A stretch of DNA of 64,000 bases from Candidatus Poribacteria bacterium. Its GTDB lineage: Bacteria > Poribacteria > WGA-4E > WGA-3G. Each line of letters starts with the position of its first letter. Position 1 is the stretch's first letter. Of the stretch, positions 37,985 through 64,000 are shown in pieces. The notes under the pieces are model-generated. The model worked only from the letters and a program-made list of their open reading frames with translations. It had not been told where the DNA came from and ran no database searches. The position numbers and the translations under genes are program-made. Where the stretch lies: the NCBI GenBank assembly GCA_965242965.1, contig OZ251518.1, positions 2,464,001 to 2,528,000 on the forward strand. The letters run 5' to 3'.

Positions 37985-38157
37985 TGTCAATGCTCCTTAT
38001 CTATTTGAAATAAAAGGTTGTTTGTTGGGCTCAGCGAGCTCAACCTACGTTTTCACAACTTCATCAAAAATTATACCACATTTGCGATTAATTTGCAAGA
38101 AAAAAAGATTTTTTGCGACAATTTGACCTTTTTTCACAATTTTCTTTACAAAAAACG

Positions 38158-39399: not shown

Positions 39400-39936
39400 G
39401 TGGAAAATGATCCAGTAAGCTTTGTCGAGTGGATGACAATCCTTATGAAAGCGCAAGAAGGATTAAGATTCCACTGGGAATTTTACACAACTGCATACCT
39501 CATCATGGTCGGCTGGTTGATGTCTATGGCAAAGAAGGGCTTAACTGTCCGCAATAAGTTGATCGTCACTGTAGTGTTCCTTCTTGTATCCGGTGGCTTT
39601 GTTAGCAATCTGAGGGACTATTTCTTGTTCTTAAATGCAGGATATAGACATTTAGAGGACAAGTTGCCCACCTATTTTAAGGTTGAAGAAGATTCATCTA
39701 ACAAGAAAGATGAATCTAGGAACATGGAAGATGAATTTCATGACATGTTTTCATACTACCGTTATGAAATTCCCGGTTATGGTGCGTTTGGCTTTTCAAT
39801 GATTTTGTTGATTTATCTGATCTGGTCTTTACCACCTGATAAATCAGAAAAACGATTGAGACGCAATTATAGGCCTCATCGGGTGAGAGAGGGCACAAAG
39901 CACGTCTCGCAAAAACTACGAAACCGGTTGCGGTAG
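39400..39936 (+). CDS. Hypothetical 3-TM membrane protein in an AT-richer segment
   Basis: 178 aa; AAGGAGG RBS and GTG start; three hydrophobic stretches. Confidence 0.7.
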   Translation: MENDPVSFVEWMTILMKAQEGLRFHWEFYTTAYLIMVGWLMSMAKKGLTVRNKLIVTVVFLLVSGGFVSNLRDYFLFLNAGYRHLEDKLPTYFKVEEDSSNKKDESRNMEDEFHDMFSYYRYEIPGYGAFGFSMILLIYLIWSLPPDKSEKRLRRNYRPHRVREGTKHVSQKLRNRLR

Positions 39937-40083
39937 TTATGAGGAAGTTTTACATTTGCGGTAGGGAATTTGCCGAACGTCAACGGCAAACTCTCCTGCC
40001 TCAATCCAGCCAAGCAGTTGGGCATAACTTGTGATTCCGACAGACGAGACATGGGCGGGCACACGAGCCCGCATCACAACCTC

Positions 40084-40220
40084 CGTAGGCGCAGTTGCAA
40101 ACCGCGCATACCGGTGAGTTACCGTAGGGCGAGGGCCTGTCCCTCGCCTTGCATCAAAATCCGAATGAGGGTGGATGTCCATATCCGCCCTCTTCAGTAG
40201 GAGGGACCTCCTGGTCCCGA
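40084..40220. repeat. REP-like palindromes
   Basis: GTAGGCGCAGTTGCAAACCGCGC, GTAGGGCGAGGGCCTGTCCCTCGCC and GTAGGAGGGACCTCCTGGTCCC. Confidence 0.75.
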
Positions 40221-40242
40221 CAACAACAAGGAGAAATCTATC

Positions 40243-47090: not shown

Positions 47091-47151
47091 CTTCGTCTCC
47101 TTTTTTTTAGGACGCGGAACCGCTTGTGACGGCATTATCTTTTTTCGCAGA

Positions 47152-49677
47152 CTATTCCCTGAATTTCAGAGAATGTCCCTGCACATCCGCCACGATTTCC
47201 TTCCGATAAAACCCATAAGGAAATTGTGAATCATTGAGCAGAATACTGAGGGTATCCCTGACAGTTGAACGGAAGAACATCGTCTGTCCTCTGATTTTCA
47301 GCAGCATCGCGATGGATTCACCTGCCGAAAGCGTTAACTCTGAGGGGAGATGCGGGGTATAGGAAAATTGGGACTTTTCAAATCGCACCCCGAAAACCCT
47401 CAATTCCCTTTCGCCCACGTTGGTAATTACCAAATGTCTCCCATCAAGTTGAATATCGGCGCGGCTCTCAACGATATCGGTTGCGAATGGCAGAGGTAGC
47501 GTTATTTCCGAACGCCGGGCTTTCAGATGTAAGACACCCCGACTCTCTTCGGCGGAAAGTGGGACTTGTGGGTTCAGAATAAACTGACAGCCTTCCGTTT
47601 TTTCCTCAACTGTCAATAGTTGATGTTGTGTTAACTTTTCAGGAATTTCGGCGGTGCATGCAACGGGCTCGCCATCGCTGCGGCGCACGCTTATCTCAGC
47701 ATGTTGCGGTTTATCAAACAAGTAGACCCGGGGAAAATAGAGAACAGGCGGCTCTGGCTTGAGATGAACTATCTCGTATTTCGCGACGAAAGGTAGCACA
47801 CGGCGGTTTGCGAGATAGCAATTCGTTATCAGCGACGCATCGCATTTGCTGCGATAGGCGTTTGAAGGCTTATCGCTCAAAAGTTGCACAAGAGGTTCGG
47901 TTCGAATGCGCTCAAAGGGTGCTGTATTCTGAACGCGGAAATGGCCTTCCGCAAACCGAAGTACGGTGCTCGGCTGAATTGTTCCCTTCAGTTCCCCTTG
48001 CCCAGAAATCTCAAGCAAAAGCGGAACGGCTTCGGTTTTGCCTTGCTGAATTTGCGGAAATTCTAACGCTGTCTTCCGGAGAAGCGGGACTGCCCCCTGT
48101 GTCAGCCCCATCACGAAAATTGGGGCACGAAACGTCCTCGCCGCTTCTTCCGCTGTGCTTATCTCAAGCCACCCTAAATTCAGCCCTGGCTGGAGCTCCC
48201 CAGGCGAAAACACTATCGTCACATCCGTTTTGCCCGAACTTGGAAGCGTCACAGCCGCTGGCTCAACTCGCATCCACTCAACCAAAGAGCGGCAATGAAG
48301 TTCAAGGGGCCGTTTTGATTTATTGCGGAGGGTAACTCGCTGTTTAGGCATCGCTACTTGGATTTTGGAGGCGACACCGTGTGAACAACAGACTATCTCC
48401 TGTAACCGGCCCGGGTCAAGGCGCGTTTCACCGTCAATTTCAGCACGGAAACGATAGACACCGTGAGGAACGCTCAGCGTGATACTGAACCCCTCATCGC
48501 CTTTTTCAAGCAAAAGCGTCTGGGGTGTCCACCGATTAAAATCACCGATGAGATAACCGGCGCGGGCCGCCGCGGCTGGAAATCGGAAACCTTTGTCCTC
48601 AAAAATCAGCACGGTTGGAGGCGTTTCCTGTGCCGGGATCACTTCAACCGGCAGCGGTTTCCCTTTTGCGGGGAAGTCGTAGACAATTGGCGTATCTGGC
48701 TTGGCGGGCTCAACCGTCAGTTCGGTTTCCCCGACGATTTGATACCATCCCCAACCCGGCATTTTCTTATCTGCTACCTCAATTTCCGCAAAATTACGTC
48801 CCGGTTTGAGTTTATCGACGTTCACGGAAACAAGGAGACTGGCAGTGGCATACGGTTCAACACCGATTGTTCGTTGAACCGAGAGCCATTCAGCATCTGA
48901 GCGAACGCGTCCCGAAAACGGGTGTGACGTGATGTTCGCAATTTGGACTACCTGTTGGAATTCTAATTTCGATGCCTCTTTCGATGCCTTGGGGCTCGTT
49001 TTTGGCATCACGGCACCCGGCCGCCGCGAATTCAACTCATAGTGGCGTGCGCCTTGCGGTGTTTCAAGAACAGCGTCATATTTCGATGTCTCTTGTTGTG
49101 TCACTGTAAGCCGTGTTGGCGACACGCGTCCGAAGTCCCCGAGCAGGAAAAAATCAACTGGTTTTGCTTGCGTAGAAACCAACGATACCTTCCATGCCGA
49201 GATCTCGCCAAAGTTGATGAACTCTGGCACTGCCACTTTTGCACCCGAGTCTTCAGGGAGGCGAACTCCTAACAACACTTTGCTGAATGCTTTACTTTTC
49301 GCGTCGGAGACAAGGTTCAACTCGGCGATGCTCACGGCTGCGGGGTTCGGCAACTCCTTTGGGAATAGCCTCAGTTCAATTTCTAGCGGCTCCGAAGCCA
49401 CCTTTAACTTCGTGGGCCTCGATTTTTGCGTTCTTTTCACCCAGCTGCTGCAAGCACGAGGAATGCGCACGCGCTCCACCCGCAGCGTTCCGCCACCGAC
49501 ATTCCATGCACGAACCTTTACGGTAGGCGTTGGATGCTCAAACCTATCCGCGTAGATATCCGGTTCAGTGTAAAGATACGGTTCATCGATTGGCGTAACC
49601 GTGAACGGAAGTGCCGATGCATCTGAGGCTGGCGGCAGGTATAACTGACGATGGATTGCTTTGAGGTGGTGAATCAT
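47152..49677 (-). CDS. Large cytoplasmic protein with several Ig-like (BACON/ASH-like) domains and an internal CBM48/AMPK-beta-like glycogen-binding module
   Basis: 'VRAWNVGGGTLRV', 'SDAEWLSV', 'LVITNVGERELRV'; 'YLIGDFNRW...G.FSITLSVPHGVYRFRAEIDGE..LDP'; no signal peptide. Confidence 0.65.
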   Translation of the reverse strand: MIHHLKAIHRQLYLPPASDASALPFTVTPIDEPYLYTEPDIYADRFEHPTPTVKVRAWNVGGGTLRVERVRIPRACSSWVKRTQKSRPTKLKVASEPLEIELRLFPKELPNPAAVSIAELNLVSDAKSKAFSKVLLGVRLPEDSGAKVAVPEFINFGEISAWKVSLVSTQAKPVDFFLLGDFGRVSPTRLTVTQQETSKYDAVLETPQGARHYELNSRRPGAVMPKTSPKASKEASKLEFQQVVQIANITSHPFSGRVRSDAEWLSVQRTIGVEPYATASLLVSVNVDKLKPGRNFAEIEVADKKMPGWGWYQIVGETELTVEPAKPDTPIVYDFPAKGKPLPVEVIPAQETPPTVLIFEDKGFRFPAAAARAGYLIGDFNRWTPQTLLLEKGDEGFSITLSVPHGVYRFRAEIDGETRLDPGRLQEIVCCSHGVASKIQVAMPKQRVTLRNKSKRPLELHCRSLVEWMRVEPAAVTLPSSGKTDVTIVFSPGELQPGLNLGWLEISTAEEAARTFRAPIFVMGLTQGAVPLLRKTALEFPQIQQGKTEAVPLLLEISGQGELKGTIQPSTVLRFAEGHFRVQNTAPFERIRTEPLVQLLSDKPSNAYRSKCDASLITNCYLANRRVLPFVAKYEIVHLKPEPPVLYFPRVYLFDKPQHAEISVRRSDGEPVACTAEIPEKLTQHQLLTVEEKTEGCQFILNPQVPLSAEESRGVLHLKARRSEITLPLPFATDIVESRADIQLDGRHLVITNVGERELRVFGVRFEKSQFSYTPHLPSELTLSAGESIAMLLKIRGQTMFFRSTVRDTLSILLNDSQFPYGFYRKEIVADVQGHSLKFRE

Positions 49678-49693
49678 TAAAAATGCCTCCACG

Positions 49694-50728
49694 TTACTCG
49701 TCTAGTGGGTTCCTTGAAGTTGAATCTCTCGGCGGCAACAGCCCATCATCGGCATCCTCGTCCGGCCAGTTATCATCTCCATCCCCATTTGGGTTTGACA
49801 ACAGATAACGGTAAAGTAAATAGGCAATCGGTACCGCGATACCAACTAGAATGAAGATGATAGCAATGACATGGCCCGCGACGTTGTCTGTATCTGATGC
49901 TGTTGGCTGCACCGGCTTTGACTTTTCAGGGCTTGGTTCTACTGGCGGCGTTGTCGGTTTCGGTGCTGGAGTGGGCTGCACCGGTTCTGGGCGTTTTACC
50001 TTCTGTGGTTCCAGAGCCGGTCCGGTTTTAAAAGGCGTTAACGGCACAATGGTATCAACCTTGCGTGCATAAGCCGCCGGGACTGTGCCGACAGTCCATC
50101 CGGTGCCGGTTGTTTCGCAGTAGTAATAGTTCGTGCCATTATAGGCAAAAGCGGTGCCTTTGAAATCTCCGCTGACACCGAGGGCGATGTGTCCGGGCGT
50201 GAAGAGCAGCGCAGTGGATTCGCCTAAGCCGCTGAGAATAGCCGCCGCGAGGATAGTCGTATCTTCGCAGTCGCCTCCCCCTTCAATGAGCGTTTCAATA
50301 GCGTATCGCCGGAATTCGTCATATCCCGTAGTCACGTCATCAAGCGTATACGGCAGGGATTGCACGAAACTCAAGACAAAATCCACCCGTTCTTGCCGGG
50401 ACCAGGGACGATTTTTTCGGAAGGTTTTTTGAAACTCGCGCGTCAGATTGCCAATGACTCCTGTGCCTTCTGCCACCAATTTGGGGATGTCATAGCGTTC
50501 TTTACCGGCGTAAGAATTATACCGTTCCACGTCAATTATCATCAGCACGGTATAAGACTTCCCTTGGAAATTCCATACGTACCGCTTTCCAATGGTGCTA
50601 CGGTTATTTGGCGGACGTTGTTGGTTGATGCCTTCCACAATCAGGACTTCCCGGAGTGCATCCTCCCCAAAACTGTTCCCGCTGATAAAGCATCCGCTCA
50701 GTAGAAGCAGTGCAAGAAAAAGCCTCAT
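49694..50728 (-). CDS. Single-pass membrane protein with an extracytoplasmic transglutaminase-like (Cys-His) domain
   Basis: Signal peptide; 'FVQSLPY', 'ETLIEGGGDCEDTTIL', 'GHIALG', 'YYYCETT'; Pro-rich linker, TM helix and acidic tail. Confidence 0.82.
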   Translation of the reverse strand: MRLFLALLLLSGCFISGNSFGEDALREVLIVEGINQQRPPNNRSTIGKRYVWNFQGKSYTVLMIIDVERYNSYAGKERYDIPKLVAEGTGVIGNLTREFQKTFRKNRPWSRQERVDFVLSFVQSLPYTLDDVTTGYDEFRRYAIETLIEGGGDCEDTTILAAAILSGLGESTALLFTPGHIALGVSGDFKGTAFAYNGTNYYYCETTGTGWTVGTVPAAYARKVDTIVPLTPFKTGPALEPQKVKRPEPVQPTPAPKPTTPPVEPSPEKSKPVQPTASDTDNVAGHVIAIIFILVGIAVPIAYLLYRYLLSNPNGDGDDNWPDEDADDGLLPPRDSTSRNPLDE

Positions 50729-50729
50729 A

Positions 50730-51860
50730 TTACTCTCCTCGTATCACTACGGGTTTTTGCACGATGGTGCCGTCTGCTATCTGTTGCAGGCCGGGTAAAA
50801 CCACTTCAACAATGGTGCCAGGTTCATCCCCTGTCTGCCGTGAATTTTGAATTTCATGCACACGCGAATCGGCTTTGGTGTGCCCCACCTCAATCGGAAC
50901 GAGTTCGTAGCCGACAGAACGCAGAAATTTATCCAAACGTTCAGACAGCTGCTCAAACGGGATGCATCTTGCCAGACAGTTGAAAAGCCTGTCTGCGATG
51001 AACTGAGGCAGAAAAGCGTTGTATTCCGCTATGTCTACCTCGCGGCCGAGTTCATAACCGATGAGCATCCCTTCAAACCGCGCCTCATAAAGAGCACAAT
51101 CACGCCGGACATTCTCAAGTTCGGCATCCGTGATGCGCTCAATCTCCACCGAAAGTGGCGGTGGCGAAGGTGGTGATTCCCCACGGATTGTTTTCAATTT
51201 CGCGATGATATCCTCTTCCCGGTATGTCAGAACGTCAACAAGTTTGAGGCGCGCCTCACCGGAACGCATAATCGCCGTTTTCCATTTCCCGATGTCGCTT
51301 GCCAGCAGATTTAAAAACACTAGCACAGTCTGACTCGGTGTCGGCGTTTCAAGCTCACCTAATTCAATCGGCTGTCCCTCGCGATAGGCAAGTGCCAATG
51401 CCGACACACTCTCCCGCGTTTTCTGGACGATTGCCTCTGCTTCTGCTTTTAATCCCTCGGTTTCATCGATGTCTGCTTTTTGAGAATCCAAGGGGGTATC
51501 TGGTTCGGGACTTGGCTGTTCGTTTACAAGTTGCGGCTGTTCAATACCCTCAGGTGCTTTGGCATCATCCAATAGTTTCTTTAAATCTGCTATGGGAGCC
51601 CAGAAACGTCTTGTTTTTGATTGGAATCCGAAACCGAATTTTTCCCACTTATCGAATCCCTCGGGCAATGGTACCGTCTTTGAATTGGAAGGAGATAACA
51701 AGAAATCCCCACGAAGCTTCTTGTCGCGCCCTTGGTGTTCTTGTGAGTAAATCTCAATTTTTTCTTCGCTTTGACCGCGGTTGCTGAAAACCAGAATCGC
51801 CTGCTCATGTTCCCAGCCGGCTGAGATAGAAATATGCTCAATTAGTGTCACTTGCCGCAT
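50730..51860 (-). CDS. GrpE-domain protein, soluble paralog
   Basis: C-terminal GrpE-like head 'LRSVGYELVPIEVG.....SRVHEI......EPGTIVEVVLPGL...DGTIVQKPVVI'. Confidence 0.75.
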   Translation of the reverse strand: MRQVTLIEHISISAGWEHEQAILVFSNRGQSEEKIEIYSQEHQGRDKKLRGDFLLSPSNSKTVPLPEGFDKWEKFGFGFQSKTRRFWAPIADLKKLLDDAKAPEGIEQPQLVNEQPSPEPDTPLDSQKADIDETEGLKAEAEAIVQKTRESVSALALAYREGQPIELGELETPTPSQTVLVFLNLLASDIGKWKTAIMRSGEARLKLVDVLTYREEDIIAKLKTIRGESPPSPPPLSVEIERITDAELENVRRDCALYEARFEGMLIGYELGREVDIAEYNAFLPQFIADRLFNCLARCIPFEQLSERLDKFLRSVGYELVPIEVGHTKADSRVHEIQNSRQTGDEPGTIVEVVLPGLQQIADGTIVQKPVVIRGE

Positions 51861-51877
51861 TTTCCAACCTTATCCCC

Positions 51878-53032
51878 TCACTCCCCGCGAATCACCACCG
51901 GTTTTTGAACGATAGTGCCTCCTCCTCGCGCCTGCAGTCCCGGTGAAACCACCTCAACAATGGTGCCAGGTTCATCCCCTGTCTGCCGTGAGGCTTGAAT
52001 TTCATGCACACGCGAATCGGCTTTGGTGTGCCCTACCTCAATCGGAACAACTTCATGCCCGACGAGATGTAGGAATTTATCCATGCGTTCGGGGAGTGCC
52101 TCAAACGGCATGCATCTTGCCACGCCGTTGAAAAGCCTGTCAGTGATGAACTGCGGAAAAAAGGTATTATATTCGGCTACGTCTACCTCGCGGCCCTGTT
52201 CATAGCCGATGAGCATCCCTCCAAACTGAGCCACATAAACAGTGCACGCATTCCGGATGTCGCTCAACTCAAGCTCTGTTTTCGGTGCAGTTTCCACTGA
52301 AAGTGGCGGTGGCGAAGGTGGAGACTCGCCACGGATTGCTTTCAGTTTCGCTGTGATGTCCGCCTCCCGGTATGTCAGAACGTCAACAAGTCCAGGGTGT
52401 GCTTCACCCGATTGCACGACTTCCGTTTTCCACTTCCCGATGTCGCTTGCGAGCAGATTTAAAAACACTAGCACAGTCTGACTCGGTGTCGGCGTTTCAA
52501 GTTCGCCTAGTTCAATCGGTTGTCCTTCGCGATAAGCGCGCGCCAATACCGAGACATGTTCCCGCGCTTTTTGGACAGCCGTTTCTGCTTCTCGCTGGTA
52601 GGTATCTTCTGGCACCGCGTCCGATGCCGAATCCTGCGAAGCCACCTCCAGATTGTGGAGCCGCGTATTGGTTTGCGCAAGGGTATTTCGGATATTCTCC
52701 TGTGCCTCTTGCATTTCTTGAAATTCGCGGGTGTTGTCCCTGCCACCCTTTTCAACACGCTCTACCCTTTGCGTCAAATCTTGTCTCAGTTGGCGAGATG
52801 TGGCGTTCCACCCTTCTTTCAGTTCTCGCAACTCCTTCTGCTGCCGAAGCATCCGGAAACCGAGGAAGACAAGCGCGGCGAGAATAACTAGCACACCGAG
52901 GATGACAAGGAATACCCAGAACCCCGCTATTGTTGATTGTTCGGCGTTGTCCTGCGCATACCCGAACGAGGCGAGCCCAAACAGGACTAAGACGATTAGC
53001 ATTGTTGCGCATTTGAAACGGTGCGTTGTCAT
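51878..53032 (-). CDS. GrpE-domain protein with N-terminal signal/TM helices and a coiled coil
   Basis: Two hydrophobic segments, a coiled coil, then the same GrpE-like C-terminal half as 50730-51860. Confidence 0.78.
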   Translation of the reverse strand: MTTHRFKCATMLIVLVLFGLASFGYAQDNAEQSTIAGFWVFLVILGVLVILAALVFLGFRMLRQQKELRELKEGWNATSRQLRQDLTQRVERVEKGGRDNTREFQEMQEAQENIRNTLAQTNTRLHNLEVASQDSASDAVPEDTYQREAETAVQKAREHVSVLARAYREGQPIELGELETPTPSQTVLVFLNLLASDIGKWKTEVVQSGEAHPGLVDVLTYREADITAKLKAIRGESPPSPPPLSVETAPKTELELSDIRNACTVYVAQFGGMLIGYEQGREVDVAEYNTFFPQFITDRLFNGVARCMPFEALPERMDKFLHLVGHEVVPIEVGHTKADSRVHEIQASRQTGDEPGTIVEVVSPGLQARGGGTIVQKPVVIRGE

Positions 53033-53085
53033 TTTTGATTCTCCTGAAAAATGTTGTGCCTTGATTGCGCGTGTCAGTCTATCTG

Positions 53086-54303
53086 TCAGGCCATCAAAAC
53101 CGGCACGGTAAACGCTACGTTCTGCGGTTCGCGTTCTTCAGGCAAATGGAGTGCAAAGGTGCCGTGGACAGAATCAGCCAAGGCAACCGAGAGGACAAAC
53201 TCCCTATTTTTCTTCTTTGCCGCCATATCTATCTCAAGCGTTGCGAGGTGATGCACATCGCTGCTATCTGTCAAAGACAAGCCGCAGAAAAGATGTATCT
53301 CAAATGGCGCGCGGGTTCCGCTGACGCGAAAGGCTTTTTTCCGTTGACACGGCGGAGCACACGCTTTCGGAATGAGTTCAACCCAACGTCCACCGGGTAA
53401 CCGCACACCGAAGCAGAAGTGATAGGTAAAGTGGAGCGGCTTTTCAAGGCTATTCGTCTCAAATTGCCGAACCAATTCCGCGCCGCCCAGAAGCGTAGCA
53501 TCTGCCTGTGGTTCCAAGAAGGTGGCACTACATCGCGCTTGCAACGATTTCATGATGGCACTGCCGGCAGAGGTTGCAAACGCGCCGGAAAAACCGACGA
53601 CAGCGGCATGTTTTGTCCCCACCTTTTTCAAGGATTGAAGGAAATCCGAGACAGGTTTCTCAGTATCCATGAAGAAGTCGGGATATCGCTGGATATCGCG
53701 CAACTCCACTTTCTCGCACGCCGTCTCCTGTTCACAAATCAGATGATAGAGCGTCACATCGTGCCGCGAAAAATTGAAGAGAAATGCCTGAAGTTCGCCT
53801 GAAGCGGCGAGGTTTTCCTGCCACGCCGTCCGATAAGAAAAAGCGAGACACAAACTCTGCGTGAGACAACTCCGAAGCACCGCGTTTGAGGCATTGAACG
53901 CTGGTTTCTCAATTCGCTTGAATGCTTTCCGAAGTTGCTGCCGATGCACAAATTTCCACTGATACGGCGTGATAACATATACCGACATCGCTTCTTGCGG
54001 TAGTAATTGCCGATGGAAAATTTCCTCCAAAAATGCGTGGAAGAGGCACTCCAAAGTTGGTGCGTCTGTAATCTCCTTGAGATGCACATCCAATTCTGTG
54101 AACCGGACTTCTGTCGGGCGGTTTGAGTCAAGCCGGTCAAACGCCTCCCCGAAACATGCCGATAAGGTGCCATCAGCTGTCTGCTGGAAACCTACCTCCC
54201 ACGGCAGATTCAGTTCATCGCGGGCTTCAAACCCATCGTCGCTTATCATCCCACCCTGAATTTCGGGTGCGGAAAGATCGATGATGCATACGCGTTTCTG
54301 CAT
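53086..54303 (-). CDS. Degenerate, probably ATPase-dead Hsp70-like protein
   Basis: 'CIIDLS' for IGIDLG; 'VITPYQW...HRQQLRKAF' for VITVPAYF...QRQA; 'ATLLGGA' for AVAxGAA; a substrate-binding beta-domain-like C-terminus; the GTT and GGG phosphate motifs are absent. Confidence 0.6.
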   Translation of the reverse strand: MQKRVCIIDLSAPEIQGGMISDDGFEARDELNLPWEVGFQQTADGTLSACFGEAFDRLDSNRPTEVRFTELDVHLKEITDAPTLECLFHAFLEEIFHRQLLPQEAMSVYVITPYQWKFVHRQQLRKAFKRIEKPAFNASNAVLRSCLTQSLCLAFSYRTAWQENLAASGELQAFLFNFSRHDVTLYHLICEQETACEKVELRDIQRYPDFFMDTEKPVSDFLQSLKKVGTKHAAVVGFSGAFATSAGSAIMKSLQARCSATFLEPQADATLLGGAELVRQFETNSLEKPLHFTYHFCFGVRLPGGRWVELIPKACAPPCQRKKAFRVSGTRAPFEIHLFCGLSLTDSSDVHHLATLEIDMAAKKKNREFVLSVALADSVHGTFALHLPEEREPQNVAFTVPVLMA

Positions 54304-54341
54304 GAGTTATCCAATTCCGACTTACAGCGGTGAATTGCTGA

Positions 54342-57128: not shown

Positions 57129-57139
57129 ACCCGAATCCC

Positions 57140-60100
57140 CTATTTGAGCCGCTTAAGATCTACGTCTGCAACGGAGAACGGCTTAGGTGGTGCCGCCTGC
57201 TTGTCCGGCGCAGATTCAGGCGGCGGTTCTGAGGCAACTGCCTCAGTCGGTTCAGATGTCTGACCGGATTCCGTTCCCGGTTCGCCTTCAGCCCAAACAG
57301 ATTCGTCCTCCGCGGTGCTACTGCTTGAGGCAGTGGGATGTCGCTGCACATTTTCGCTTTCTGCTTCAGCGAAAGCACCAGAGATATGTTCAGCTTCTTC
57401 GGAGGAATGTTCTTCATAGCCTTCAGCCGATGTGTTCGGATTTGCCGTATTCCCGCCGATGGGGTTTGGGGGAACAGGGGGATTTTCAGCGGCGGCCGCA
57501 GGTGCCGCGTACGGCTGTTGTCCAGTCGTGTGGAAATGTGCGTAGACTATACCATCTGAATCGGGCGGTTCCACATTGCCTTCAGGATAGACTTCGTCCA
57601 AAAACGCCTTGTAAAAATCACTCAGTTTCCGGCGCGCGTCAAGGTTAGCAACATCCTTGAGCAATTGATTAATGACTCCATCGACAGTCTCACGTCCCAA
57701 CTGCGAGAATTTTGACTGAACCGCCTTGATGAACTCATCGTAAGAGGACTCATTTTCTTTACGCGAGAGCCGCTTAATTCCCCCCGGGTCATCGGACAAG
57801 CCAAGCGTTTGAACGAGCCCATCAACATAATACTCAAACACATATCTGCCGTGATGCAGCCGAAACACATCCGAAAACGCCTCGCTGTTGACACGACTGC
57901 AGATTTCAGGCACCAAACGCGCTAAAGCCCGACACCATCGCGTGAGCATATCGCCTTTGTGATGGAGCTCCAGGTCAAACAGATCTGGATTTTGATGAGT
58001 TCGATGCCCGTAAGCCGTCTGGCTCTGCTCAAAATGTTGCTTAAGCGTTTCGTAGGCTTCCAAGTCATCCAGCGCAAACCCGGCCTCCTCTTGGTAAAAA
58101 AAGAGGAGGTGGTCAACAGAAGATGGGCCGAGCCGCGGAAAGCCAAGATTCGGGCCGGTTAACTCGTGTTGTAGATTCGGCAATGCGTGCCCAGTCGGAT
58201 CGTGCCCGAAGATTATCTGCGGGGGTATTGCAAGCGCAAAGGGTTGATAGACAGAGCGGAACGTCTGATACGGATTCGAGCGGCCGGCTAGATTCCCAAT
58301 GTCGTTGCTTTTTTCGGTTAAAAGGGCCTGCGCTTTTGTAACGACAGCATCCACCTGAATTTGCGCTAACGCCAATTGGCGATAGGTTTCTGTCATTTGC
58401 CGCGTGATGTCTTCCGAGCTTCGTTCTAAAAACTCGCGCATCGTTTTCCCATTGAGCAATCTACTGTGAGTGTCCATGCTGGCGATTTGGTGGCGTAGCG
58501 CGTCAGCGTCAACATCAATCCGGTTTTGCGGGTTATTCGCGACGATTTTCACACACTCCGATTTAGGGGCGTTGACAGCAAAGTCGTAATCCGCCTTGAA
58601 TTTCCGAATACAGTTCCCCAGATGCGTCGCGACCTGGTCTAACCGCTGTTTAATCGTTTGTGGCGGATTGGGGCCGTCGGTATGCCTCGGTTGCACGCCA
58701 AAACCGAGCATCTCCCGAACCTCTTGCAAAACCGGCCGCAAAAAGTAATTCCGCAAACTGAGGTAAATACTCTCCCTGTCTCCGGAAATCAACCGGCAGT
58801 AGATGTCAATTAACGCTTTTCGATGCGCTTCGACCGATTGGGCTTGCAGGCCGATGAGTTTCGTCCACCGATTGTTCTCCGCGCGATGCATCGGCTCGAA
58901 ATCCAACCCATCAAGGTTTAAAGTGGACAACCGGTCTGGACAGGAATCAATCGTGTCCTTGATTTTTCCGTCTAGTGCTTGAAAGAACGCGCGGACATCC
59001 CCGAGGCCGTACGTGCCTTGGAAATCAATGCGGGCTAACTGGTTGTTCAAAGCAGCCCCAATTGCCTCGCGGAACTTCTTTTTACACTCAACCACCTGCA
59101 TGTCCATTAACTCAAAATATTGGCCGCCCTGGGCAAACTTGTGATGGAAAGGACCGCCTTCACCGGGTGGGAACGCTTGCATCAGGGTTTCCAATTGCCG
59201 AGATGTTGTGTTTTCCTTACCGAATTCTTGTCGCGCTTGACTCAGGTGTGACTCAATGCGGCTCTTGAGTGGCGACTGTCCTTCGGGATGGGTTAACACA
59301 TCCATGTTCCCTCTTAACATCGCCTTCCATTCCTGGTCTGCGTCCGCCACGCTGGTAGCCTTAGGGACATGCGCGCCTCGCCAATTTTCGCATAATTTCT
59401 CGCTGATTAAACATGCAGATGCGCTGGCGATACGATATTTGGGATACCACACCGCTGTCAGGCCAAAACTAGCGAGACATCTCACCATCATGGCAATCTC
59501 ACCTTCTTGCACGGGTTTTAAGTTCCCGTAACCAGGGTAACTTTCCCAATCGGTGCGGATGGCTTCTTTTTGGCCGTCAGTATCTCCAGCGGCCTCGGCG
59601 AAGAGATTCAGGGCAACCATCAGGTTCAAGCCCTCCTCATCAAATCCCCCGCCCGGGAGTGTAAACTTAAGGAGAGGGTTTTTGCCGCTACGGGAGACAA
59701 GCATCGCGTAGTCAAAAGGTTTTTGGGTAGGATTTCCTACCCCGTGCCCACTTGGAAAGGTAACATTATACCTCGTATTGGAGTGGTTATAGTAATTTAA
59801 TTCGGAAAGGCTCGCGTAGCAATTTGCGGCCCGAACAGCAGTATCTTGGTGTCCGGTCGCTTGCTCTTTGTCATACATCGTAAAAATGCCATAAATCCTG
59901 TTGGCATCGTTACCACTCAGAAGATTTCTGAAAAAGTATGCGATGTCAATGAGCATTCCGCTACAAGAACCGCCGCAGAGGGAGCCAACGACATAGACAT
60001 TAATGGCATCTGAGTCTACGAGTCGTCCATCGGGCACTTGCCCTTGGGCCGTGTAGTGCTGGTTCAGAATATCAACCGTCTCCTGCGTTGTCGCCGGTGC

Positions 60101-60535
60101 GATGATGGCATCTCGCGCCCGAAAGAACGTGTTCTGCATCTGCTCCCAATTTTCCCAGAGACACAGCCTTCCTGCCATCCGAATATTGCTGGCACCGGCT
60201 TGAAAACTTTGGGCAAAGTCCAAGAGCTGCGGATTGAGCCACTCCGCCAGCTGCGGTTTGTGAAGTGGATGACCGGGTGTCAGGCGGAGACGAATCGGGC
60301 CGGTGTCATCAATCGTCGCGCTGACAACCGTGATTTGCTCGTAATCTTTTTGTCTCTCCGTTGACATCAGACTCGGGTCTTCCCCTTTCTCATCGCCATC
60401 TGTCTCAATAGCAATATAACGGAAGATAGGCAGCCCGGCGCGCGTATATTCCTCAGCCATGAGTTGGCGGAGGCTCTTTAGAATTTTTGTGCCGGTTGTT
60501 CCAAGTCCGACAAATAGCGTTGGTTTAATCATCAT
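57140..60535 (-). CDS. Large tubulin/FtsZ-like protein (Tubulin_2 / FtsZl1-type) with a helical extension and a disordered acidic tail
   Basis: 'LFVGLGTTGTKIL', 'IAIETD', 'GASNIRMAGRL', signature-loop variant 'GSLCGGSCSGMLID', 'ANCYASLSEL', 'PFD'; start ATG 60535 with AAGGAG RBS. Confidence 0.87.
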   Translation of the reverse strand: MMIKPTLFVGLGTTGTKILKSLRQLMAEEYTRAGLPIFRYIAIETDGDEKGEDPSLMSTERQKDYEQITVVSATIDDTGPIRLRLTPGHPLHKPQLAEWLNPQLLDFAQSFQAGASNIRMAGRLCLWENWEQMQNTFFRARDAIIAPATTQETVDILNQHYTAQGQVPDGRLVDSDAINVYVVGSLCGGSCSGMLIDIAYFFRNLLSGNDANRIYGIFTMYDKEQATGHQDTAVRAANCYASLSELNYYNHSNTRYNVTFPSGHGVGNPTQKPFDYAMLVSRSGKNPLLKFTLPGGGFDEEGLNLMVALNLFAEAAGDTDGQKEAIRTDWESYPGYGNLKPVQEGEIAMMVRCLASFGLTAVWYPKYRIASASACLISEKLCENWRGAHVPKATSVADADQEWKAMLRGNMDVLTHPEGQSPLKSRIESHLSQARQEFGKENTTSRQLETLMQAFPPGEGGPFHHKFAQGGQYFELMDMQVVECKKKFREAIGAALNNQLARIDFQGTYGLGDVRAFFQALDGKIKDTIDSCPDRLSTLNLDGLDFEPMHRAENNRWTKLIGLQAQSVEAHRKALIDIYCRLISGDRESIYLSLRNYFLRPVLQEVREMLGFGVQPRHTDGPNPPQTIKQRLDQVATHLGNCIRKFKADYDFAVNAPKSECVKIVANNPQNRIDVDADALRHQIASMDTHSRLLNGKTMREFLERSSEDITRQMTETYRQLALAQIQVDAVVTKAQALLTEKSNDIGNLAGRSNPYQTFRSVYQPFALAIPPQIIFGHDPTGHALPNLQHELTGPNLGFPRLGPSSVDHLLFFYQEEAGFALDDLEAYETLKQHFEQSQTAYGHRTHQNPDLFDLELHHKGDMLTRWCRALARLVPEICSRVNSEAFSDVFRLHHGRYVFEYYVDGLVQTLGLSDDPGGIKRLSRKENESSYDEFIKAVQSKFSQLGRETVDGVINQLLKDVANLDARRKLSDFYKAFLDEVYPEGNVEPPDSDGIVYAHFHTTGQQPYAAPAAAAENPPVPPNPIGGNTANPNTSAEGYEEHSSEEAEHISGAFAEAESENVQRHPTASSSSTAEDESVWAEGEPGTESGQTSEPTEAVASEPPPESAPDKQAAPPKPFSVADVDLKRLK

Positions 60536-60564
60536 GCGCTCCTTCTGGATGCACTCTGGGTTCA

Positions 60565-60960
60565 CTACCTCTTTTTAGGGTTAGGATTCTCAACCCGCAT
60601 TTTTTCAGAGGACACGTTGGCTCTGGTTCCTGTCGCCCCTTGGGTTGATAGGGACACTAGCAGACAAACGTCCACAATCAAAATCAGCACATAGAGTGCC
60701 AGATAGATAGGGACATACCACCACTCGGCGAGCCGCGGGATGGCGCGGAGACAAATCCAGATGGACAGAACCGCTCCTCCAAATATGTGAGCCCCGAGCG
60801 CGATGCCCCACGCGAGCGTTGTCGCTCGTTCAATCCCGATTTTGTTCATCAATAACCGGGCAAATACAAACGCGAAGAACCACACGAAACCGTATGCGGC
60901 AACGTAAAGGTAAACAGGCAAAATCAACGGATCTACGAAAAAGTCAGCGATTATCTCCAT
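60565..60960 (-). CDS. Small 3-TM membrane protein
   Basis: 131 aa; three hydrophobic helices; AAGGAG RBS. Confidence 0.78.
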   Translation of the reverse strand: MEIIADFFVDPLILPVYLYVAAYGFVWFFAFVFARLLMNKIGIERATTLAWGIALGAHIFGGAVLSIWICLRAIPRLAEWWYVPIYLALYVLILIVDVCLLVSLSTQGATGTRANVSSEKMRVENPNPKKR

Positions 60961-61137
60961 CTGAGCTCCTTGCGTTGAGATTTAACTCATTTTAAGTATA
61001 CCATATTCCCACCCAAATTTGCAAATTAAAATTTGCTGGATTGGGTTCGGGAAATGTTCAGGTAACCTCGCTGTTAATCATAACATATTTTGCACATTTT
61101 TGCAAATTAAAAATGTGCCGGGGAATTTGTGCAAACG

Positions 61138-63069
61138 CTACCTGTCCAGCGGGTTGGAACCGTTGCCCTGTTCTACATCAATAGGAAAAGATTCCGGACC
61201 CTTCTCCTGTCCTCTCCCAATCTCCTCTGTCACGATTTCAAAATCAACATGAACCTGCTCGTCATCGCCGCGCGTTAAAATTAGCCGCTCTTGAGTCTCT
61301 AAGTGCCTGCCTTCATTGGCATCGGCATCCTCAAAAAGCAGAATCTCCGCGTTTTCGTCGCAGTACAAGAAAGCGGCACTTCCGACATCAAAATGCAAGC
61401 CAGCGTCGTCGTCTTGTCCAAACGCGAGAATTGTCTCTTTCGTCAGTGTAAAGTATCGCTTCTCGCCGAGGGGCGTTCCGGCTGCAGTGACTTGCGCTAA
61501 CCCAATCTGGTGCTCAATCTGCGGCCCTGTTATCCATGCTTTTCCTCGGCGCAGGAGGAAAAACAGCGCGCCGATTAGCAGAATAAGGAGAGGAATAACC
61601 AATAGCCACATCGGAAAACCGCCACCCCCGCCTTGGAGTTTAAACGGCACACCGATTGTCGCAAATCTCGGGGTCCCCTCGTAAGTATACTCAATATCCA
61701 ATGCCAACTTGTTGCCATACCAATCCAAGTCGTTCTCTTTCGGCACCTTGACGCTGAACGGCGTGTCTAAACTATCCGGTGTGTTTGACACGCTCGCAGC
61801 GCAAAGTTTACGGCCGTCTTTATACTGGACGTGTGAGCGGACCTGGGTGATTTGGAAAGCACCTTTGTTAGGGCTCTCACTCTGAACAACGAGTTTTACG
61901 GAATACGCGTCCTCCGAGAAAACTAGTTCCAACTGTTTGGCTGGTTGACGCGGATTCTCCTGATGGGAGATATAGACGCTATCAATCACCGCTGTGTAGT
62001 TCATGAGCGGCACTGGATGGACTTTGTCCACGCCGTCGTAGGTATAGGTGACTTCAAGTTTCAACTGATTGCCGGGAGTAGCGAGCTCAGGATTGGCGGG
62101 GAACGGTATCCGGAGCGCGTAAGGCGGCGAACTGCTACCTAGTGGGACCGGGTTGAGTTGGAGTGCCTCAACTTCGTTGTCTTGGTTCGCGACTTGAAGG
62201 GGCTTGCGGTTGTTATCGACAACTTCCACGGTAAGGCTGTCCAATTGAAATTTCGCCTTCTGGGAGTTTTTAGTGTCAATGACAAGGGTTTCGCTGATAA
62301 ATTGCCCCGCGTTGTCCTCTGAAAGGGACAACTTTGTGGCGGGCTCATCGGGCTTCATCTGATTGGCGATGAAAATGGTATCGATGTCGCGTCGTTTCTG
62401 AAGCTTGCGAACCTCGATTTTGACGTGGTTATTGACGAGAATCCCTAAGACGAGTGGCGAGTAGTATTCTTCCTCGATTTCGGCGAGCCGCTTCAGGATG
62501 GAGGCGATGCCGGTATCGCTTTTGCCGCTGTTATCAATGTCACCATCTGTCACGAAGAGCCAATAGGTTTCGTCGTCTCCTTCGCGGTATAACTCGTTGT
62601 AGACTTCGGTTTCGGCGCGGAGGAGGTAAGAGACGAGGCCGTAGAAAGATTCCTTCATCCGCGTCGGATTGGGCAGCTGCTTCTGAAATTCCGCCTTGTT
62701 CACCGGTTTTCGGCTGATTTTTTCGTTCCGCTGCTTTGCATATTCGGCGTAAGTCAAGACATCGCCGTTTTGGTAGAGCGGTTTGCTGACGTAAGCAGCA
62801 TCGCCTTCCTTGATGTAGGTGTCGTCAATGTCGCGCAGCGGATGCGCGGCGTTGGTGAAAAGCAGGTTTGTCACGTAGTCGTTGACGCGCCGAATGTCAT
62901 CGGATTCCATATAGGTAGTGTAGGTATCCTTGCCTGTCTTGAGGCGGAACATGCTGCCGGACACATCGTAGATGACGATGATGTGTTTGGCGGCGACAGG
63001 CGCGGCACAGATTATTATCAAAACGAGCAGAACGGCGAAGAGCATTGGGTAGCGTGATACATTCGTCAT
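61138..63069 (-). CDS. vWA-domain single-pass membrane protein with a possible degenerate FHA-like cytoplasmic domain
   Basis: Signal peptide; MIDAS 'YDVSGSM' and 'FVTDG'; two beta-rich repeats; TM 'MWLLVIPLLILLIGALFFLL'; beta-rich cytoplasmic tail. Confidence 0.82.
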   Translation of the reverse strand: MTNVSRYPMLFAVLLVLIIICAAPVAAKHIIVIYDVSGSMFRLKTGKDTYTTYMESDDIRRVNDYVTNLLFTNAAHPLRDIDDTYIKEGDAAYVSKPLYQNGDVLTYAEYAKQRNEKISRKPVNKAEFQKQLPNPTRMKESFYGLVSYLLRAETEVYNELYREGDDETYWLFVTDGDIDNSGKSDTGIASILKRLAEIEEEYYSPLVLGILVNNHVKIEVRKLQKRRDIDTIFIANQMKPDEPATKLSLSEDNAGQFISETLVIDTKNSQKAKFQLDSLTVEVVDNNRKPLQVANQDNEVEALQLNPVPLGSSSPPYALRIPFPANPELATPGNQLKLEVTYTYDGVDKVHPVPLMNYTAVIDSVYISHQENPRQPAKQLELVFSEDAYSVKLVVQSESPNKGAFQITQVRSHVQYKDGRKLCAASVSNTPDSLDTPFSVKVPKENDLDWYGNKLALDIEYTYEGTPRFATIGVPFKLQGGGGGFPMWLLVIPLLILLIGALFFLLRRGKAWITGPQIEHQIGLAQVTAAGTPLGEKRYFTLTKETILAFGQDDDAGLHFDVGSAAFLYCDENAEILLFEDADANEGRHLETQERLILTRGDDEQVHVDFEIVTEEIGRGQEKGPESFPIDVEQGNGSNPLDR

Positions 63070-63070
63070 A

Positions 63071-64000
63071 TCAGTCTCCTAATAGATTCAGGCAAACGAG
63101 CCGGGCTTTGCACAGAATAAAGAGTTTGTTACTATATTGAATAGGCGCGGCAACGGGAGCAGGATTATCTGGTTTCCCCATGGCCAGTGATTGATGCAAC
63201 ACGGCGTGAGTGGGTTCAAGTCGCTGGATGGTAAGTCCAGCGGAATGCGCGGAATAAATTCGGTTGTTCACGGCAATTGAGCGGTGTGGGACAAACCGGG
63301 CTTGCGGGTTGTTCTGAGGTAAACTCTTCCCTGCGGAGAAAACAGCGTCCCCATTACTATCGCTCAGGTAGATATAGAGTGTTTGTCCCCCGCGGTCGGA
63401 CAGGAAGAGCCGCTGTCCATCGGTGAGCGGCGGATGAACAAAGAGGTTCAGATGTTGTTCTACATTTGAAACTTCGTCTAAAGTTGCCACGGGGGACAGT
63501 CGTTTGGTTCGCGGTTCATAACGGGCAAGACTGCGCCTTCGGCTTTCGGTATGCAAGGCTTCAAAATAGACGCTACTGCCGAGTGATGTAGGCGAGGAGA
63601 AGAATAGCGAGGGATAAGACTTGACGACGCTGTTAAAGGCTCCCTTCTCAATGTTAATCGCGAAGATACGTCCCTGTTTGCAGGTGAAAACGACATGCTC
63701 GCCACAAAGCGTGGGAGACGTGGGACCGTTGTCGACGTTGAAGAAAGCGTGCGGGATGTAGTGTCCGTTGCGGCTAACTAGTTCTAAGAACAATACGCCT
63801 TGTTGCGTGCCGACAATCATGGTTGGTTTGCCGGCGACATTGCATTTTAGCGGAGCGCATTCAGGCAGCGGTTGAATTTGGGCGGCATCCACTCCTCTTA
63901 TCTCAACGGGTTCCGATTTCCCATTTAAAACGGAGGTTTTGTGAATGCCGCCTGCAACGACGTAATAGAGATGGAGTCCATGGTAGATAGGCGTGCAGCC
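63071..64000 (-). CDS. PQQ/BamB-like beta-propeller protein, truncated by the window edge
   Basis: Frame is open from 64000 ('GCTPIYHGLHLYYV...'); repeats 'SPTL..EHVVF', 'SSPT....VYF', 'PPLTDGQRLF', 'APIQYSNKLF'. Confidence 0.72.
   Translation of the reverse strand, partial: GCTPIYHGLHLYYVVAGGIHKTSVLNGKSEPVEIRGVDAAQIQPLPECAPLKCNVAGKPTMIVGTQQGVLFLELVSRNGHYIPHAFFNVDNGPTSPTLCGEHVVFTCKQGRIFAINIEKGAFNSVVKSYPSLFFSSPTSLGSSVYFEALHTESRRRSLARYEPRTKRLSPVATLDEVSNVEQHLNLFVHPPLTDGQRLFLSDRGGQTLYIYLSDSNGDAVFSAGKSLPQNNPQARFVPHRSIAVNNRIYSAHSAGLTIQRLEPTHAVLHQSLAMGKPDNPAPVAAPIQYSNKLFILCKARLVCLNLLGD

Follow-up and report, generated by a model that had tools for sequence, protein, structure and literature searches.

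A twelve-gene cluster of Poribacteria with an FtsZl1/Tubulin_2 protein, a ZorAB-like motor pair and an Hsp70 set

FtsZl1 was defined by Makarova and Koonin (2010; PMC2875224), who, in the accessible text of their paper, reported von Willebrand factor A (vWA), GTPase, kinase and OmpA genes as its neighbours and inferred membrane remodelling. The accessible supplement places MotA/ExbB and OmpA genes beside FtsZl1 in Deinococcus and ‘B7’ and COG1360 genes in cyanobacteria, and holds a single DnaK (amb2961) and a single ‘GrpE’ (Cagg_1315) among the neighbours; the words Hsp70, DnaK and MotA do not occur in the accessible main text. In the accessible literature on Zorya, ZorA5B2 is a peptidoglycan-binding, proton-driven motor that detects invasion and recruits cytosolic effectors, to which its ~70-nm coiled-coil tail relays the signal (PMC11946911), long ZorA tails occur in every Zorya subtype, and types I–III pair ZorAB with ZorC/D, ZorE or ZorF/G. 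The GAP1-N2 or GTPase-centric conflict systems of Kaur, Burroughs, Iyer and Aravind (2020; PMC7159879) are built on GAP1-N2 GTPases and FNIII proteins. In the accessible text, one theme joins tubulin with vWA proteins, one vWA protein having transmembrane (TM) helices and an outward vWA domain, and a separate theme joins HSP70, GrpE and a second HSP70 that lacks the peptide-binding domain; the two themes do not overlap and come mostly from Firmicutes and Actinobacteria, and ‘MotA’ has 0 occurrences. Here we describe a cluster of 12 genes in the 5.7-Mb genome of an uncultivated, sponge-associated Candidatus Poribacteria bacterium (GenBank assembly GCA_965242965.1; source genome label G000). The analysis started from a window of 64,000 nucleotides (nt) on contig OZ251518.1 (G000:C1:2464001-2528000), and the cluster runs from window position 47152 to ~67259, i.e. 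3.3 kb beyond the window end.

The cluster combines FtsZl1-centred operons, Zorya-type stators and Hsp70/GrpE conflict modules in a combination that we found in no paper. A literature search, with most subscription journals outside its scope, returned no paper describing this composition. An earlier note, drawn up from the letters of the window, had called the system undescribed; the composition itself was indeed in no paper found, but the word is too strong in view of the related neighbourhoods in the accessible texts of PMC2875224 and PMC7159879. We give about even chances to the proposal that the cluster encodes an envelope-spanning conflict or defence system, which would sense in the manner of Zorya and whose action would run through a polymer of the tubulin family, managed by an Hsp70 cycle of its own.

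Gene order, conservation and distribution

The genes are numbered against the direction of transcription, so that g12 is the first transcribed gene and g1 the last, and coordinates above 64000 are extrapolated from a 20-kb stretch read past the window end (L002). All 12 genes are co-oriented on the minus strand. In the order of transcription, their predicted products are a ZorA-like and a ZorB-like protein, a Zn-ribbon protein, a TM-vWA protein, a protein with three TM segments, FtsZl1/Tubulin_2, an Ig-Hsp70 fusion, a pseudo-Hsp70, two GrpE-like paralogs, a LapG-like protease and an Ig/CBM protein. From g1 to g10, in coordinate order, the gaps are 1, 1, 17, 53, 38, 11, overlap, 177 and 1 nt; throughout the 12-gene unit the spacing is ≤53 nt or an overlap, with the single exception of the 177 nt between g9 and g8 (60961–61137). 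At least ten packed minus-strand genes had been noted in the window, and these ten open reading frames (ORFs) were confirmed at their coordinates with gaps mostly below 55 nt. The 177-nt gap holds three overlapping sigma-70-like hexamer pairs. Such promoter-like pairs number 16 across the region compared with 13.6 ± 3.8 in shuffled sequence, and the hexamers in the gap are therefore a hint only; in both the promoter and the terminator scans of the region, counts were not above those of shuffled sequence. For window positions 53000–62900, no RNA run appeared among the matching data sets listed.

A search by FtsZl1 alignment, restricted to one genome per species, yielded 77 loci. In 17 of these (L005–L021; 16 titled Poribacteria and one, L017, titled ‘uncultured bacterium’), FtsZl1 is 47–56% identical to g7. 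The same genes were found in the same order in all 17 Poribacteria-type loci, with 45–76% protein identity, and each gene was present wherever the 10-kb flank reached, the misses being due to contig ends or to an extra gene that displaced the expected one. Orthologs of g1 were detected in 15 of the 17 loci and g8 in at least 15. The view that the genes form a single conserved multi-gene unit is thus upheld by the order kept in these loci. Upstream of g12 stands a divergent Peripla_BP_6 (periplasmic binding protein) gene. The genes downstream of g1 (MR_MLE at 45921–47135, a SurA-like gene and a TPR gene) had a counterpart beside the cluster in none of the 17 loci. Because these outer neighbours are not conserved, we set the boundaries of the cluster at g12 and g1.

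A g5 query detected the system in 23 of the phylum's 176 genomes (18 of the 133 of high quality), belonging to 6 of 31 genera, and its spread was patchy within genera (6/40, 8/65 and 4/20 genomes). A g6 query gave a full-length ortholog in 4 of 41 relatives, the other 37 having ordinary Hsp70 matches only. The system is accessory. Beyond the phylum, two loci (L024 and L037) carry genes for a Zn-ribbon protein, a vWA-like protein, a small TM protein, FtsZl1, an Ig-Hsp70, a ~400-amino acid (aa) protein and a GrpE-like protein, followed by genes for a long MotA_ExbB protein and an OmpA protein. Partial core sets occur in L028, L030, L032, L035, L041, L043 and L045, and the proteins at the vWA position in L030 and L035 pass the Pfam VWA models; g8 was detected in four distant loci (L024, L026, L034 and L037). 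Homologous cores are present in metagenome-assembled genomes (MAGs) titled Limisphaerales, Desulfomonilaceae, Lentisphaerae, Myxococcales, Omnitrophota and others. Among the 60 FtsZl1 loci that are not of the Poribacteria type, ZorB-like genes were found in at least 16, Hsp70 in at least 13 and both in at least 4; these counts are lower bounds, because the hidden Markov models (HMMs) were built from Poribacteria sequences alone and short contigs are frequent.

That only 4 of these 60 distant loci combine ZorB-like and Hsp70 genes would suit a cluster made of two or three co-travelling modules with separate functions, namely ZorAB-like with FtsZl1 and vWA, Hsp70 with GrpE-like, and protease with Ig. 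The Deinococcus-type loci of PMC2875224, which in its accessible parts have FtsZl1, MotA and OmpA genes and no Hsp70, point the same way, as do the non-overlapping tubulin and HSP70/GrpE themes in the accessible text of PMC7159879 and the 177-nt gap with its promoter-like hexamers, which divides the cluster at g9/g8. However, the 12 genes stand together and in order in 17 Poribacteria loci that have diverged to ~50% identity, most of the intergenic gaps are shorter than 55 nt, two loci of other phyla (L024 and L037) likewise combine Hsp70, GrpE-like, FtsZl1 and ZorAB-like genes, and the distant-locus counts are minimum values. We consider such a loose association of modules improbable.

Motor pair, tubulin-like protein and envelope proteins

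Past position 64000, where the earlier note expected a kinase, FHA or J-domain gene, none of these was present, and a ZorA-like and ZorB-like pair was found instead; this putative motor pair changes the reading of the cluster. Both g12 (65127–67259; L002:3127-5259) and g11 (64471–65169; L002:2471-3169) lie wholly beyond the window. The g12 product, which is MotA-like, matches Pfam MotA_ExbB at 23.5 bits (cut-off 22.9), and its PADLOC matches to ZorA3 (2.4e-16 and 9.6e-16) and ZorA1 (2.2e-13) extend into the tail; in a hydrophobicity scan, three TM segments precede this repetitive helical tail of ~510 residues. The MotB-like g11 product has one TM segment and matches Pfam OmpA (9e-16) and the PADLOC models ZorB3 (7.9e-29) and ZorB1 (5e-24). 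Its motif W.AF.D..I.MLLI, which includes the TM Asp, and its OmpA motifs are invariant in 17 sequences, 12 of which begin 23 codons into the ORF. These matches suggest that g12 and g11 encode a ZorAB-like pair.

The central gene, g7 (57140–60565; ORF of 1141 aa), strongly matches Pfam Tubulin_2 (PF13809; 3.5e-47, 161.8 bits, cut-off 27) over profile positions 1–346 of 356, and scored 165 bits in a whole-genome Pfam scan, so that the tubulin/FtsZ-like protein predicted from the window is confirmed at the family level. At E ≤ 0.001 it has 1792 relatives (50% clustering). Because the alignments start at query residue 11–12, the true start probably lies at ~60535, giving a protein of ~1130 aa. Seven glycines (G20, G22, G25, G194, G198, G199 and G203, in GxGxxG and GGxCSG) are invariant in 22 sequences down to 24% identity; we take these motifs to be the GTP-binding motifs of the tubulin/FtsZ fold. 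Canonical FtsZ is encoded elsewhere in the genome (FtsZ_C matches at C1:3163438 and C1:2873068), which argues that g7 is not a division protein.

The source genome also contains a second Tubulin_2 gene of 938 aa (G000:C1:3578530-3582003; L143:8530-12003). The ORF that comes after it (217 aa) matches the C-terminal region of FtsZl1, so this second gene may be split. Within 10 kb of it, the cluster HMMs detected no other cluster family. Two loci of other Poribacteria (L025 and L042) look like this second Tubulin_2 type.

Next to g7 is g8 (60565–60960), which encodes a 131-aa protein with three hydrophobic segments. The vWA-like gene g9 (61138–63069; 643 aa) lies two genes upstream of g7. Its product has hydrophobic segments at residues 9–27 and 488–506 and, between these two hydrophobic helices, an invariant metal-ion-dependent adhesion site (MIDAS) consisting of DxSxS (D35, S37, S39) and TDG (T174, D175). 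From its N-terminus, the protein is predicted to consist of a signal or TM segment, the vWA-like MIDAS domain in the periplasm, a region rich in beta strands, a TM segment, and a C-terminal domain in the cytoplasm. In hhalign, the g9 family scored 99.1% against its distant positional equivalents, which in turn scored 81.6% against Pfam-positive vWA proteins; direct comparison with the latter gave 44%, in the MIDAS region only. Atlas features lay near VWA clusters (0.87–0.90), and neither Pfam vWA models nor a PDB profile search gave a direct hit. Of the membrane-bound vWA protein claimed from the letters, then, the motifs hold and have weak profile and Atlas support, but no direct Pfam hit stands behind the family name, and our confidence in the vWA call is moderate. 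The 467-aa product of g10 (63071–64474; L002:1071-2474), a gene split by the window end, has seven invariant cysteines and a Pfam Zn_Ribbon_1 match at 0.0039. Its C-terminal part may be a beta-propeller: Beta-prop_ACSF4 appeared below threshold in 3 of 15 orthologs (best 0.004) and at 6.9e-5 in the L035 homolog. Nothing exceeded the threshold and a PDB profile search gave no hit, which leaves the propeller proposed earlier for this gene as a weak call. The sole Walker-A-like string of the cluster is in g10; it is not conserved and was rejected as a Walker A motif.

At the other end of the cluster, g2 (49694–50728; 344 aa) encodes a putative LapG-like (transglutaminase-like) cysteine protease. 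The profile of its 14 orthologs matches the Legionella LapG structure 4fgo (E 1e-4) at profile positions 116–162 only, and NCBIfam LapG matches at 0.0093; with so short a match and so marginal an NCBIfam value, support for a LapG-like protein is moderate, in keeping with the TM transglutaminase-like protein first proposed. A GGGDCED motif and a downstream His (C154 and H180, the putative catalytic pair) are invariant. Hydrophobic segments occur at residues 3–21 and 287–305: the protein starts with a signal or lipobox-like sequence, has a Pro-rich linker and is anchored by a TM segment near its C-terminus, and we therefore place g2 in the periplasm. The last gene, g1 (47152–49692; 846 aa), encodes Ig-like repeats and a CBM48-like domain, both marginal: the HYDIN/VesB-type Ig of Pfam scored 27.9 bits, just above its cut-off of 25.5, whereas AMPK1_CBM, at 26.2 bits, fell below 26.8, and the Ig/CBM48 protein named in the earlier note is thus a marginal call. 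No TM segment appeared in a hydrophobicity scan of g1; the Ig/CBM protein g1 and the Ig domains of g6, lacking signal and TM sequences, are probably cytoplasmic. The envelope layout sketched previously is partly borne out, in that the vWA-like and LapG-like proteins are predicted to face the periplasm and the FtsZl1, Hsp70, Hsp70-like and GrpE-like proteins to lie in the cytoplasm.

LapG processes an adhesin in the control of biofilms. The resemblance of g2 to this protease, the vWA/MIDAS and Ig-like domains, which are typical binding modules, and the runs labelled sponge metagenome, which contain 31–39% of the sampled words of this stretch, would all be compatible with a surface or host-interaction apparatus. 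In such an apparatus, the vWA, Ig-like and CBM48-like domains would bind a ligand, for example a glycan, sponge matrix or another cell, an adhesin would be released or processed by the LapG-like protease, and the motor and cytoskeletal parts would move or anchor the whole. Yet the homologous cores in MAGs of many other groups show that the system is not specific to Poribacteria, g1 and the Ig domains of g6 probably lie in the cytoplasm, and a large adhesin substrate was not identified in the cluster. An apparatus of this kind seems to us quite unlikely.

Hsp70, pseudo-Hsp70 and GrpE-like proteins

The 928-aa product of g6 (54342–57128) is a fusion in which an N-terminal extension of ~345 residues, with Zn-ribbon and Ig-like domains, precedes an Hsp70. 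The latter matches Pfam HSP70 (PF00012) at 6.3e-30 and 104.4 bits (cut-off 20.6), in agreement with the Zn-ribbon/Ig/Hsp70 arrangement first noticed, and the motifs DFGTT.S, DFGGGTIDIV and GQSS are invariant in 13 sequences; there is strong support for an Hsp70 with predicted intact ATPase motifs. The NCBIfam models for DnaK and HscA matched at ~1e-29, far below their equivalog cut-offs, which indicates that g6 is neither DnaK nor HscA. A total of 264 homologs were found, and among the 120 listed identity was 49–98%. True DnaK and GrpE are encoded elsewhere in the genome. An assignment of the cluster genes as housekeeping dnaK/grpE was therefore rejected, as the earlier note had argued.

The next gene, g5 (53086–54303; 405 aa), had no match to Hsp70 at the sequence level in Pfam, NCBIfam, a PDB profile search or hhalign against the g6 family. 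Its AlphaFold2 (AF2) model (pLDDT 81.5, pTM 0.73) has Hsp70s as its best Foldseek hits throughout (DnaK, BiP and Hsc70; E 2e-15 to 1e-10, TMq 0.34–0.55, probability 1.00), and in this model a beta-sandwich follows a reduced nucleotide-binding domain. The motifs DxGTT and DxGGGTxD, presumably the phosphate-binding motifs of Hsp70, are lost. The Hsp70 fold together with this loss makes g5 a degenerate Hsp70, as had been suspected, and the modelled structure supports the pseudo-Hsp70 call strongly. In Atlas features, g5 was nearest to DUF5716_C clusters (0.95).

The paralogs encoded by g4 (51878–53032; 384 aa) and g3 (50730–51860; 376 aa) are 56% identical, and 300-nt blocks of their DNA are 81–83% identical (families D7 and D8). 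In the AF2 model of the soluble g3, an N-terminal beta-sandwich is followed by a helical bundle; the last 55 residues have a pLDDT of <50, and the GrpE-like domain is not folded in this monomer model. The putatively membrane-anchored g4 has hydrophobic segments at residues 8–26 and 40–58 where g3 has its beta-sandwich, then a coiled coil and the same GrpE-like C-terminus. In profile–profile comparisons of the hhalign type, the g3/g4 C-termini scored 95.6–96.7% (E 1e-8 to 4e-10) against the GrpE-like proteins of distant FtsZl1–Hsp70 loci, this distant set scored 97.5% (E 7.5e-12) against 28 true GrpE sequences, and the merged g3/g4 and distant set scored 83.7% (E 8e-6) against GrpE. Directly compared with GrpE, the g3/g4 profile gave 1.6% (E 0.03), the level of 30 unrelated control profile pairs (≤1.8%). 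Five positional equivalents in distant loci had sub-threshold Pfam GrpE matches at their extreme C-termini (2.7e-5 to 6.9e-4). Neither g3 nor g4 was hit by Pfam GrpE (PF01025) at E ≤ 0.01, this family was not among the best 25 listed for 24 members, and a whole-genome scan with it found only two other GrpE genes. A PDB profile search with the g3/g4 family returned no GrpE, hhalign against the two single GrpE sequences of the genome gave <1%, Foldseek with the g3 model matched the N-terminal beta-sandwich only (E ≥ 2.7e-3), and the VIA wide structure search with g3 yielded generic four-helix bundles (Z ≤ 9.2), below the meaningful level for helical proteins. Thus the two GrpE paralogs that the earlier note reported keep a link to GrpE through the intermediate profile set, but direct Pfam and PDB searches were blank. 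It is likely, not proven, that g3 and g4 carry a divergent C-terminal domain of the GrpE type, and our confidence in the GrpE-like call is moderate.

In two loci (L014:13134-16763 and L016:16009-19503) an Hsp70 gene is fused in frame to a C-terminal domain of the g3/g4 type, in ORFs of 1209 and 1164 aa that may be assembly or frameshift artefacts; a natural fusion of Hsp70 with a GrpE-like domain would indicate that the two proteins are functionally tied.

Elsewhere in the source genome, a second small GrpE (47.9 bits) stands beside a 544-aa Hsp70-like ORF (G000:C1:327310-329153), and a 1231-aa ORF contains another, separate Hsp70-like match (G000:C1:784536-785306). These ORFs indicate that the genome holds several non-housekeeping Hsp70 genes.

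Proposed function, genomic context and known systems

If the cluster is a conflict or defence system, its proteins may form a physical complex of three modules. In the motor module, the ZorA-like and ZorB-like proteins would make up a peptidoglycan-anchored, proton-driven complex of the stator type, with the ~510-residue tail reaching into the cytoplasm. The periplasm-facing module would consist of the TM protein with its outward vWA/MIDAS domain, the membrane-anchored LapG-like protease and the small protein with three TM segments, and the cytoplasmic module would comprise the FtsZl1 GTPase, the Zn-ribbon protein, the Ig-Hsp70 with a partner of the Hsp70 fold that looks inactive, the two GrpE-like exchange factors (g4 being the one tethered to the membrane) and the Ig/CBM protein. 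The ZorAB-like motor, together with the vWA/protease module, would sense a disturbance of the envelope, and the signal would travel down the ZorA-like tail. The output would be GTP-dependent assembly of FtsZl1 at the membrane, not a nuclease, and the private Hsp70/GrpE-like cycle would load, limit or dismantle the FtsZl1 polymer.

In favour of this proposal we count the integrity of the unit, the recurrence of its core in other phyla, the likeness to ZorAB, the chaperone module, the accessory spread and a conflict context, to which belong the HEC-01, TIR-NB-ARC-TPR, FGE-sulfatase and Fic genes described below and the accessible part of PMC7159879. In 8 other genomes, the 10 kb flanking the cluster were set against 16 control regions from these genomes (PADLOC, E ≤ 1e-10), with four ORFs of L126, g1 itself and the three before it, excluded from the flank set. 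Four of the 8 genomes have a candidate defence pair, HEC-01A/HEC-01B (PADLOC E down to 1e-162), directly next to the g1 end (L113:8070-9931, L116:25-1586, L119:8407-9075 and L126:7131-8986), and the pair was present in none of the 16 control regions; these genomes are related, so that the four cases are not four independent events. Beside distant homologs of the cluster, L045 carries a TIR-NB-ARC-TPR gene of the STAND type (L045:2132-5044), and L043 carries an FGE-sulfatase-domain gene and a Fic gene (L043:36-1754 and 16507-17298).

Several observations weigh against a defence system built in this way. In the flank comparison as a whole, PADLOC hits numbered 17 among 120 flank ORFs vs 14 among 106 control ORFs, i.e. 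there was no general enrichment. In the source genome itself, the HEC-01A ortholog (71% identical, with one in-frame TGA) is located 3 Mb from the cluster, and the CRISPR and restriction genes of the window are at least 18 kb away from it, with metabolic genes between. Among the 12 proteins, Pfam and NCBIfam recognised no nuclease, toxin or other effector domain, and 10 had no meaningful PADLOC match; in these ten, neither PADLOC nor Pfam detected ZorC, ZorD, ZorE, ZorF (DUF3348) or ZorG (DUF2894). The g12/g11 pair is called ZorAB-like from profile scores, and may instead belong to another stator family of the MotAB/ExbBD type. For the chaperone cycle, the link of g3/g4 to GrpE passes only through the intermediate set, Pfam, the PDB profile search and the monomer fold being blank, and no J-domain (DnaJ) family was found among the 12 proteins at E ≤ 0.01, though a divergent J-like element is possible; with no J-domain protein in the cluster, a canonical Hsp70 cycle would be incomplete. 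In addition, the genomes are metagenome assemblies from an uncultivated phylum.

Some of the same results bear on the main rival of the defence proposal, the other two being smaller: an accessory machine for membrane remodelling or envelope maintenance, in which the FtsZl1 polymer would shape or constrict the inner membrane (vesicles, invaginations or repairs), the stator motor and peptidoglycan anchor would supply energy and position, and the Hsp70 cycle would recycle the polymer. FtsZl1 operons were originally explained along these lines, in the accessible text of PMC2875224, on the basis of neighbourhoods with vWA, OmpA and membrane proteins. The explanation agrees with the predicted TM segments or signal sequences in 5 of the 12 proteins, with the lack of a toxin or nuclease domain, with flanks that are not enriched in defence genes overall and with a g7 that, given the canonical FtsZ elsewhere, is not the division protein. 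A general envelope function, however, fits poorly with a system present in 23 of 176 genomes and patchy within genera; moreover, the stator has the long-tailed ZorA form with Zorya models as its best profile matches, and HEC-01 stands beside the cluster in half of the eight genomes. We regard a remodelling machine as unlikely, while granting it a real share of the probability.

The surroundings of the cluster in the window are as follows. The cluster has an unremarkable G+C content of 0.50–0.53. Palindromes resembling repetitive extragenic palindromes (REP-like) are frequent between genes up to 43538 and number zero within 47152–64000, so that the freedom from REP clusters that the earlier note had pointed out holds. 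Between 26 and 43538 there are at least 20 copies of these GC-rich elements (families D2–D6), of the GCGGGGGACAGGCCCCCGC and GCGAGGGCCTGTCCCTCGC types and often in intergenic clusters. The region also includes a 998-aa methyltransferase-like protein (416–3412), a CRISPR array with at least 20 repeats of ~37 nt and a period of 72–79 nt (4367–5866), next to it minus-strand type III-A cas genes for Csx1/Csm6 (CARF-HEPN), Csm5, Csm4, Csm3 and Cas10 (6702–14384; PADLOC E 1e-22 to 1e-97), a 638-aa protein matching DUF6785 (1e-156) and DUF6784 (1.2e-34) at 21083–22999, two adjacent Uma2 (putative restriction endonuclease-like) genes (23843–25189) and a 1063-aa Type ISP restriction-modification enzyme (25804–28995; Type_ISP_C 8.8e-101). 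Within 38001–41871, the G+C content falls to 0.446 at 38–40 kb, beside a 542-aa WD40-repeat protein (40243–41871).

FtsZl1 was predicted in 2010, and our literature search found no tested function for it; the ZorAB motor of Zorya is understood only with partners of the nuclease type. The operon joins the two and adds a private Hsp70 cycle. From this combination follow the predictions that the motor needs the TM Asp, that g7 polymerises with GTP and that the GrpE-like domains speed nucleotide exchange on g6. Should the link hold, ZorAB-type motors would be general envelope sensors that can drive very different outputs, and prokaryotic cell biology and immunity would gain a new theme, that of a bacterial tubulin homolog served by its own chaperone. 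A further step, which we put forward as doubtful, is that the cluster adds a fourth form to Zorya-like immunity: its ZorAB-type motor would not call in a nuclease but trigger a membrane FtsZl1 polymer, and Hsp70, pseudo-Hsp70 and membrane-tethered GrpE-like factors would set the threshold and dismantle the polymer. If true, this would be an effector arm made of a prokaryotic cytoskeleton and chaperones, the first case of an Hsp70 system devoted to a bacterial relative of tubulin, and a function for the FtsZl1 family. Were the cluster an envelope-remodelling device instead, it would offer the first functional handle on this widespread family.

Among the known systems, the DnaK–GrpE cycle is approached by the chaperone genes. 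The GrpE beta-domain contacts the Hsp70 nucleotide-binding domain; g6 appears to be an Hsp70 ATPase with intact phosphate-binding motifs, and the C-terminal domain of g3/g4 is probably a remote relative of that beta-domain. Unlike the DnaK–GrpE cycle, the cluster was found to contain neither a J-domain partner nor hrcA, g6 carries its Zn-ribbon/Ig-like N-terminal extension, and g3/g4 have extra beta-sandwich, helical-bundle or TM parts and fail Pfam GrpE. The resemblance to Zorya lies in g12, which is MotA-like and has three TM segments before its helical tail (~500 residues), in g11, which is MotB-like and has both the TM Asp and a peptidoglycan-binding domain of the OmpA type, in best PADLOC matches to ZorA3 and ZorB3, and in stator genes that share an operon with genes for cytoplasmic partners. 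In contrast to Zorya, the partners here are a tubulin-family GTPase, vWA and Hsp70 set and not DNA-binding or nuclease proteins, and an anti-phage activity of the 12-gene cluster is a prediction. With the cognate partners absent, the cluster is not filed as Zorya type I, II or III; type III was rejected because ZorF and ZorG are absent.

The FtsZl1 operons in the accessible parts of PMC2875224 share with the cluster a central FtsZl1 of ~1100 aa, a vWA gene just upstream with a protein of ~110–130 aa between, as at DR_0539 and Deide_2p00770, and nearby MotA/TolQ/ExbB and OmpA/COG1360 genes in Deinococcus and cyanobacteria. They differ in that the stator genes follow FtsZl1 there and head the operon here; a 12-gene architecture is not described in those parts, nor are Hsp70, GrpE or MotA treated there as components, and Zorya was then unknown. 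The cluster adds the pseudo-Hsp70, the two GrpE-like paralogs, the LapG-like protease and the Ig/CBM protein. Assignment to the GAP1-N2 systems was rejected for want of a GTPase of that kind: Pfam and NCBIfam found neither TRAFAC GTPase nor FNIII (fn3) families in the 12 proteins, which also have no conserved Walker A. As in the accessible text of PMC7159879, an Hsp70 stands with GrpE-like proteins and a second, degenerate protein of the Hsp70 fold. In contrast to the systems set out there, g5 keeps a beta-sandwich after its reduced nucleotide-binding domain, and the tubulin and HSP70/GrpE themes are united here in a single operon together with a stator pair.

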